Shown here piece after piece: positions 6,001 to 9,000 of a stretch of 64,000 bases of DNA (positions are counted from its first letter, which is position 1; the number at the start of each line of letters is the position of its first letter). The DNA lies in NCBI RefSeq assembly GCF_002854065.1, contig NZ_CP024147.1; one strand, written 5' to 3'. Made by a program: the position numbers. Origin of the DNA: Escherichia coli (GTDB lineage Bacteria > Pseudomonadota > Gammaproteobacteria > Enterobacterales > Enterobacteriaceae).

Positions 6001-9000
6001 TTACGGGTAGCATCGTGAGTGTTATGGCGTAACGACATGCGCGTCATATCCCGCGCATCGCTGAACGCCTGGCGCACGGTGGCGGCGGAATAGATAAAAA
6101 TTCCGGTCATTCCGGCTTCTTCTGCCAGATCGGTAATCAGCCCCGCACCGACCACCGCTTCGGTGCCGTTAGCTTTTAGCTCGTTAATCTGCCCGCGTGC
6201 GTCTTCTTCGGTAATGTAGCTACGTTGGTCGAGGCGCAAATTAAAGGTTTTTTGAAACGCCACCAGTGCCGGAATAGTTTCCTGATAAGTGACAACGCCG
6301 ATAGAAGAGGTGAGTTTTCCGGCTTTTGACAGTGCCTGTAACACATCGTAGCCGCTCGGTTTAATCAAAATAACTGGTACTGACAGGCGGCTTTTCAGGT
6401 ACGCGCCGTTAGAGCCAGCAGCGATGATGGCGTCACAGCGTTCGTTTGCCAGTTTCTTGCGGATGTAGGTCACTGCTTTTTCAAAGCCAAGCTGAATAGG
6501 GGTAATGTTCGCCAGGTGATCAAACTCGAGGCTGATATCGCGAAACAGCTCGAACAGGCGCGTTACAGATACCGTCCAGATAACCGGTTTGTCGTCATTA
6601 AGCCGTGGTGGATGTGCCATAGCGCACCGCAAAGTTAAGAAACCGAATATTGGGTTTAGCCTTGTTTCATAATTGTTGCAATGAAACGCGGTGAAACATT
6701 GCCTGAAACGTTAACTGAAACGCATATTTGCGGATTAGTTCATGATTTTATCTCTAACAAATTGAAATTAAAGATTTAATTTTATTAAGGCAATTGTGGC
6801 ACACCCCTTGCTTTGTGATTATCAACGCAAATAACAAGTTGATAACAAAGGATGGGCTATGTCTCTACACTCTCCAGGTAAAGCGTTTCGCGCTGCACTA
6901 AGCAAAGAAACCCCGTTGCAAATTGTTGGCACCATCAACGCTAACCATGCGCTGCTGGCGCAGCGTGCCGGATATCAGGCAATTTATCTCTCCGGCGGTG
7001 GCGTGGCGGCAGGGTCGCTGGGGCTGCCCGATCTCGGTATTTCTACTCTTGATGACGTGTTGACAGATATTCGCCGTATCACCGACGTTTGTTCGCTGCC
7101 GCTGCTGGTGGATGCGGATATCGGTTTTGGTTCTTCGGCCTTTAACGTGGCGCGCACCGTGAAATCGATGATTAAAGCTGGTGCGGCAGGATTGCATATT
7201 GAAGATCAGGTTGGTGCGAAACGCTGCGGTCATCGTCCGAATAAAGCGATCGTCTCGAAAGAGGAGATGGTGGATCGGATCCGTGCGGCGGTGGATGCGA
7301 AAACCGATCCTGATTTTGTGATCATGGCGCGCACCGATGCGCTGGCGGTAGAGGGGCTGGATGCGGCGATCGAGCGTGCGCAGGCCTATGTTGAAGCGGG
7401 TGCCGAGATGTTGTTCCCGGAGGCGATTACCGAACTCGCCATGTACCGCCAGTTTGCCGATGCGGTGCAGGTGCCAATCCTCGCCAACATTACCGAATTT
7501 GGCGCCACGCCGCTGTTTACCACCGACGAATTACGCAGCGCTCATGTCGCGATGGCGCTGTACCCGCTTTCAGCGTTTCGCGCCATGAACCGCGCCGCCG
7601 AACATGTCTACAACGTCCTGCGCCAGGAAGGCACGCAGAAAAGCGTCATCGACACCATGCAGACCCGCAACGAGCTGTACGAAAGCATCAACTACTACCA
7701 GTACGAAGAGAAGCTCGACGACCTGTTTGCCCGTAGCCAGGCGAAATAAAAAACGCCCGTTGGTTGTATTCGACAACCGATGCCTGATGCGCCGCTGACG
7801 CGACTTATCAGGCCTACGGGGTGAACTGTAGGTCGGATAAGACGCATGGCGTCGCATCCGACAACAATCTCGACCCTACAAATGATAACAATGACGAGGA
7901 CAATATGAGCGACACAACGATCCTGCAAAACAGTACCCATGTCATTAAACCGAAAAAATCTGTGGCGCTTTCTGGCGTTCCGGCGGGCAATACGGCGCTC
8001 TGCACCGTGGGTAAAAGTGGCAATGACTTGCATTACCGTGGCTACGATATTCTTGATCTGGCGGAACATTGCGAATTTGAAGAAGTGGCGCATCTGCTGA
8101 TCCACGGCAAACTGCCGACCCGTGACGAACTCGCCGCCTACAAAACGAAACTGAAAGCCCTGCGCGGTTTACCGGCTAACGTGCGTACCGTGCTGGAAGC
8201 CTTACCGGCGGGTCACACCCGATGGATGTTATGCGCACCGGCGTTTCCGCGCTCGGCTGCACGCTGCCAGAAAAAGAGGGGCATACCGTCTCTGGCGCGC
8301 GGGATATTGCCGACAAACTGCTGGCGTCACTTAGCTCGATTCTTCTCTACTGGTATCACTACAGCCATAACGGCGAACGCATCCAGCCGGAAACCGATGA
8401 CGACTCCATCGGCGGTCACTTCCTGCATCTGCTGCACGGCGAAAAGCCGTCGCAAAGCTGGGAAAAGGCGATGCATATTTCGCTGGTGCTGTACGCCGAA
8501 CACGAGTTTAACGCTTCCACCTTTACCAGTCGGGTGATTGCGGGCACCGGCTCTGATATGTATTCCGCGATTATTGGCGCGATTGGCGCACTGCGCGGGC
8601 CGAAACACGGCGGGGCGAATGAAGTGTCGCTGGAGATCCAGCAACGCTACGAAACGCCAGACGAAGCCGAAGCAGATATCCGCAAGCGCGTGGAAAACAA
8701 AGAAGTGGTCATTGGTTTTGGGCATCCGGTTTATACCATCGCCGACCCGCGCCACCAGGTGATTAAACGTGTGGCGAAGCAGCTCTCGCAGGAAGGCGGC
8801 TCGCTGAAGATGTACAACATCGCCGATCGCCTGGAAACGGTGATGTGGGAGAGCAAAAAGATGTTCCCCAATCTCGACTGGTTCTCCGCTGTTTCCTACA
8901 ACATGATGGGCGTTCCCACCGAGATGTTCACACCACTGTTTGTTATCGCTCGCGTCACCGGCTGGGCGGCGCACATTATCGAACAACGTCAGGACAACAA

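Follow-up and report, generated by a model that had tools for sequence, protein, structure and literature searches.

The window, by which we mean the whole 64,000-nucleotide stretch of Escherichia coli DNA analysed here, carries a prpC gene (2-methylcitrate synthase) that lacks a single C, so that its reading frame is broken at codon 103. Judged from sequence comparisons, the lesion is probably a real mutation, namely a recent, strain-private single-base deletion that would cause loss of function. The near-identity of the window to annotated complete genomes identifies it as an E. coli chromosomal segment with yahK, prpR-prpBCDE, codBA, cynRTSX, lacAYZI, mhp, frm, tau, hemB, ehaB and phoA. The broken prpC lies at its canonical place within prpR-prpBCDE. 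The features of the locus, in window coordinates, are:

7905..9073, + strand: pseudogene of prpC (2-methylcitrate synthase), with 1169 nt left of the 1170-nt gene (ORFs, profile, alignment)
8211..8212, + strand: deletion junction, one C gone, codon Ala103 (sole gap relative to AR_0085 and CUWW06; also a gap relative to 100416)
7905..8537, + strand: frameshifted N-terminal ORF of 210 aa, with 102 native PrpC and 108 out-of-frame residues (stop 8535-8537)
8222..9073, + strand: -1 frame ORF, PrpC residues 107-389 (ORF, profile, protein comparison; upstream in-frame stop TAA at 8177)
8209..8221, + strand: perfect hairpin CGGGT-CAC-ACCCG made by the deletion (5-bp stem, 3-nt loop across the junction)
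5034..6620, - strand: prpR, sigma-54 activator of the prp operon, intact (NF011953, 1000 bits versus a cut-off of 703)
6859..7749, + strand: prpB, methylisocitrate lyase, intact (ORF and NCBIfam equivalog match)
9107..10558, + strand: prpD, 2-methylcitrate dehydratase, intact (ORF and NCBIfam equivalog match)
10598..12484, + strand: prpE, propionate--CoA ligase, intact (ORF and NCBIfam equivalog match)

Structure of the broken gene and its operon

Alignment of the window to the intact prpC of AR_0085 revealed exactly one gap. At the junction (8211/8212) the wild type reads CCGGCGGCGTCA and the window reads CCGGCGGGTCA; the codons CCG GCG GCG TCA of AR_0085 become CCG GCG G-G TCA, the missing C having occupied the second position of codon Ala103. 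The placement of the deletion is unambiguous, because dropping the other C yields a different string. The gene shares 99.9% identity with the intact prpC of at least 23 complete genomes, and the single gap is the sole difference.

The first ORF extends from 7821 to 8537, with the genuine prpC ATG at 7905, and the native frame is lost after residue 102 (…LEALPA). This ORF and the -1 frame ORF overlap from 8222 to 8537. The residues encoded on either side of the break (1-102 and 107-389) are 100% identical to WP_001285909.1. When the two pieces were compared with the NF009006 profile, the N-terminal piece matched positions 2-90 (E 1.3e-44, 152.1 bits) and the C-terminal piece positions 95-376 (E 1.7e-163, 543.4 bits). 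Since the two matches cover the profile contiguously, the pieces are the two halves of one gene rather than chance ORFs, and taken together they account for the full profile. Neither piece on its own reaches the 550-bit cut-off of NF009006 and the frame is broken at codon 103; hence, the prpC of the window is a pseudogene of the family and not a functional member. The motifs GPKH (232-235), GFGH (271-274) and NLD (323-325), which we take to hold the catalytic residues His235, His274 and Asp325, are present only in the -1 frame ORF.

An earlier note on this DNA had placed a break in prpC between 8180 and 8240, after LEALPA and with continuation in the -1 frame, and the junction does fall there, as a single missing C with PrpC on both sides. 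The overlap of about 300 bp that it reported measures 316 bp, in the 0 and -1 frames. It had also proposed a comparison with the prpC of close relatives; the gene is intact in AR_0085, CUWW06 and 100416, and the window is short by one C. Its description of prpR, prpB, prpD and prpE as intact is likewise correct, for PrpR, PrpB, PrpD and PrpE all gave full-length NCBIfam equivalog matches well over the curated cut-offs. At the DNA level, prpR, prpB and prpD do not differ from the intact annotated genes of the two nearest genomes, CUWW06 and 100416, and in prpE each of these two relatives carries one private substitution, at different sites (12432 in CUWW06 and 11351 in 100416).

Two repeat elements were observed in the intergenic regions of this locus. 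A REP/BIME-like array is located between prpE and codB (window 12509-13224; 7.6 tandem copies of a 94-bp unit with 93% matches), and a single REP-like element is located between prpB and prpC (~7770-7850).

Distribution of the deletion allele and the nearest genomes

The prpC deletion allele is a singleton among the sequences searched. A prpC match was found in 5213 of 5426 complete E. coli genomes, 212 of the 5426 (~4%) being without any prpC match, and the best 40 of the 5213 matches all comprised 1252 bases for a query of 1251 bases, i.e., the extra C is present in them. With an 81-base junction query (megablast, complete genomes) no identical genome was obtained, and the best identity, 98.8%, corresponds to one gap. 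A 33-mer across the junction, chosen so that every 28-mer word spans it, matched 0 complete E. coli genomes, and the wild-type 34-mer control matched 2313. Similarly, an exact 24-mer of the deletion allele was found in 0 metagenome contigs and 0 species-representative genomes, and the exact wild-type 25-mer in 65 and 1, respectively. The deletion was present in none of 97 retrieved loci, and literature searches turned up no description of prpC as frameshifted or as a pseudogene in E. coli.

Protein look-ups gave no exact record of the frameshifted N-terminal products (210 aa and 238 aa). The C-terminal products (283 aa and 280 aa) are on record, and at every place checked the gene call was partial, cut off by a contig edge or by an N-gap, with contig-edge status judged by coordinates at the contig start or by sequence. 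A control product beginning 10 codons downstream was on record just as readily.

Eight of the nine contigs with the 283-aa partial product begin at the same base (GATGGATG…), with contig starts at window 8220-8222. A systematic contig breakpoint at GATGGATG was considered and rejected, the control partial product being equally common. Since the control is also common, the shared start looks like background sampling of contig ends, perhaps with a fragmentation bias, and not like an allele. Another source of gene fragments in the protein collections was noted in the GCA_0142170xx records (CP050194-CP050217). These are "chromosomes" of 5.7-6.65 Mb with the whole prp region in fragments, and the one stretch read upstream of prpC in records of this type was a long N run.

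The nearest complete genome, CUWW06, aligned with the window over ~62.7 kb; the differences amount to 16 substitutions, a 1331-bp insertion and a single small indel, the prpC gap. In a three-way comparison with 100416 over ~61 kb, the changes private to the window were the prpC deletion, an IS2 in yahL and five SNPs, one of which is intergenic, two synonymous and two nonsynonymous. Such a proportion, one indel to five SNPs, is nothing out of the ordinary for genuine divergence. The 1331-bp IS2 is complete (window 1534-2864, - strand), encodes TnpA and TnpB, and is flanked by a 5-bp target duplication, GCTGA. CUWW06 is without IS2 at yahL, and 100416 has an IS1 and no annotated yahL; the presence of IS2 in the window and of IS1 in 100416 thus indicates independent hits at this locus in close relatives.

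Other differences among the three genomes were also examined. CUWW06 (NZ_CP182139.1) has internal stops in codB (CCAGG to CTAGG, window 13689) and tauA (CCTGG to CCTAG, window 48505). Each of the two stops coincides precisely with a Dcm motif (CCWGG), and neither gene is interrupted in the window or in 100416; miscalled bases linked to methylation are the probable explanation of these stops in the public CUWW06 record. A gene for a GlxA-family regulator by lacI (window ~25800-26753, - strand) has an in-frame TGA at the SNP at 26258, in common with CUWW06, where an internal stop is annotated; in 100416 the codon is TGC and the gene is intact. From this distribution it can be deduced that the GlxA-family gene is a genuine inherited pseudogene of the clone. 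A stop in yahJ is annotated in both CUWW06 and 100416. At codon 63 of mhpC (window 31501) the window encodes Lys, and its two closest relatives encode Glu. The MhpC protein with Lys63 is common, as an exact match, in other E. coli (1491 index blocks), and this "private" SNP may be a homoplasy or a small recombination patch.

Origin of the lesion and possible bypass

The earlier note had left the choice between a real knockout and a sequencing error, and had suggested a homopolymer as the cause of the latter. The either-or reading stands, and the suggested cause does not: the C that was lost stands singly between Gs in the wild-type GGCGGCG, and the GGG run in the window was created by the deletion. 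Long-read and flow-based errors cluster in homopolymers and at Dcm or Dam motifs (CCWGG, GATC), and the site belongs to none of these contexts.

A consensus or assembly error, by which the C was dropped from the deposited sequence and the prpC of the strain is intact, is possible, if rather doubtful. It would accord with the uniqueness of the allele among 5196 complete genomes with the region and 65 metagenome contigs, so that no independent assembly confirms the deletion. The site folds into a GC-rich hairpin, CGGCGTCACACCCG, at which compression or miscalling is a possible cause of such an error. There are also precedents: in a different E. coli genome, apparent frameshifts in the propionate-pathway genes acs, cobB and prpE were traced to sequencing errors when Sanger re-sequencing was done (PMC7360682), and the public record of the near-identical CUWW06 visibly carries base-calling errors. 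Against an error, no second small indel was found over about 61-63 kb relative to CUWW06 and 100416, a context that favours a real mutation, and the IS2 and the 716-bp REP array were assembled cleanly, which suggests a finished assembly. The window is clean where CUWW06 errs, the context of the lost base is not typical of errors, pseudogenes occur in this lineage, and prpC is absent from ~4% of complete genomes. Together these observations favour a real and recent mutation in prpC.

The hairpin at the junction also bears on how a real deletion could have arisen. Template switching in quasi-palindromes predicts that imperfect inverted repeats are made perfect. In wild-type prpC a C bulges out of this stem (CGG[C]GT-CAC-ACCCG); once that C is lost, the inverted repeat, until then imperfect, pairs perfectly. 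The DNA minimum free energy changes from -4.0 kcal/mol in the wild type to -6.9 kcal/mol in the deletion allele, and the z-score from -0.3 to -2.5. Since the deletion takes exactly the bulged base, template switching within the hairpin is a plausible origin; during replication, the C would have been lost from prpC by a switch within the quasi-palindrome. By chance, 4.6% of random one-base deletions in the window give a perfect stem of at least 5 bp across the junction; the coincidence is weak, and the fit no more than suggestive of template switching. No hotspot-style recurrence of the deletion was seen in any other genome or contig searched. Because the same hairpin could underlie a compression artefact, it cannot separate mutation from error. 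We consider it very unlikely that this is a genuine deletion templated by the hairpin that it perfects or, alternatively, that the hairpin promotes enough -1 slippage at GCG-GGT for some PrpC(A103G) to leak through. If the former were true, the locus would show, in nature, how template switching in a quasi-palindrome can knock out the methylcitrate cycle.

The third possibility is that the break is bypassed, either by a -1 shift near GCG-GGT, perhaps hairpin-aided, that yields full-length PrpC(A103G), or by an active 283-aa C-terminal fragment. A -1 shift at the junction would give …LPAGSHPMDV…, with A103G as the sole change, and the C-terminal ORF opens with an ATG and holds all the active-site motifs. 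The hairpin, however, lies on the shift site and not downstream of it, the arrangement is kept in no relative, whereas programmed frameshifts are conserved, and the C-terminal fragment is without the first 106 residues of the fold. The interval permissive for a -1 shift is 8180-8537, between the TAA at 8177 and the termination codon at 8535-8537. Neither an X XXY YYZ heptamer nor a homopolymer of at least 6 occurs in it, and no Shine-Dalgarno-like motif precedes the ATG at 8222 or that at 8231. A conserved frameshift arrangement was not found in orthologues, as judged by the junction 33-mer and wild-type 34-mer counts in complete genomes (0 versus 2313). The absence of a slippery site, of a Shine-Dalgarno motif and of conservation makes recoding or a functional split enzyme very unlikely, and we regard bypass as exceedingly improbable. 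We conclude that prpC is not a programmed -1 frameshift gene.

Predicted consequences and comparison with known systems

If the deletion is a real mutation, as we think probable, translation from the ATG at 7905 would yield 102 native residues followed by 108 out-of-frame residues, up to the stop at 8535-8537. This product would miss the whole catalytic part of the enzyme, with the His235, His274 and Asp325 motifs. Since the downstream frame is without a ribosome-binding site and there is no recoding signal, no active 2-methylcitrate synthase is expected, and it is predicted from the sequence that the strain should be without this activity. In Pseudomonas aeruginosa, a prpC deletion mutant does not grow on propionate and accumulates propionyl-CoA (PMC9765439). 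By analogy, we would expect no growth on propionate via the methylcitrate cycle, a build-up of propionyl-CoA and sensitivity to propionate. The expression of prpD and prpE may also be lowered by polarity over the ~570 nt of untranslated mRNA.

The lesion reveals no new mechanism, gene family, regulatory element or kind of element. If real, it is a minor metabolic marker for one clone, of little import beyond the strain; if an error, it amounts to a one-base correction to the record.

Alignment of a relative's intact PrpC to the Salmonella enterica enzyme of known structure (3O8J) was end to end (E 1.8e-258). The two pieces in the window likewise make up the whole profile of the E. coli/Salmonella PrpC family (NF009006), but no single 389-aa product is encoded. 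With dnaX and the transposases of the IS1 and IS3 families, in which -1 frameshifting is programmed, the window shares the overlapping 0 and -1 ORFs, but prpC is without the heptamer, the conservation and the downstream stimulator. Quasi-palindrome mutation hotspots are known in E. coli from thyA and from lacZ reporter constructs, where the arms are longer. As in those hotspots, an unpaired base is removed and the repeat is perfected, but the prpC stem is only 5 bp long. The lesion belongs with the strain-private frameshift pseudogenes of dispensable E. coli catabolic genes: it is a single-base indel in a gene that is intact in the relatives, with nothing to distinguish it from that class, and like its members it is accompanied by IS insertions and other pseudogenes of the lineage. 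New only as an allele, it is a commonplace knockout, private to one strain, of a catabolic gene that is dispensable; a one-base error is the less likely alternative.
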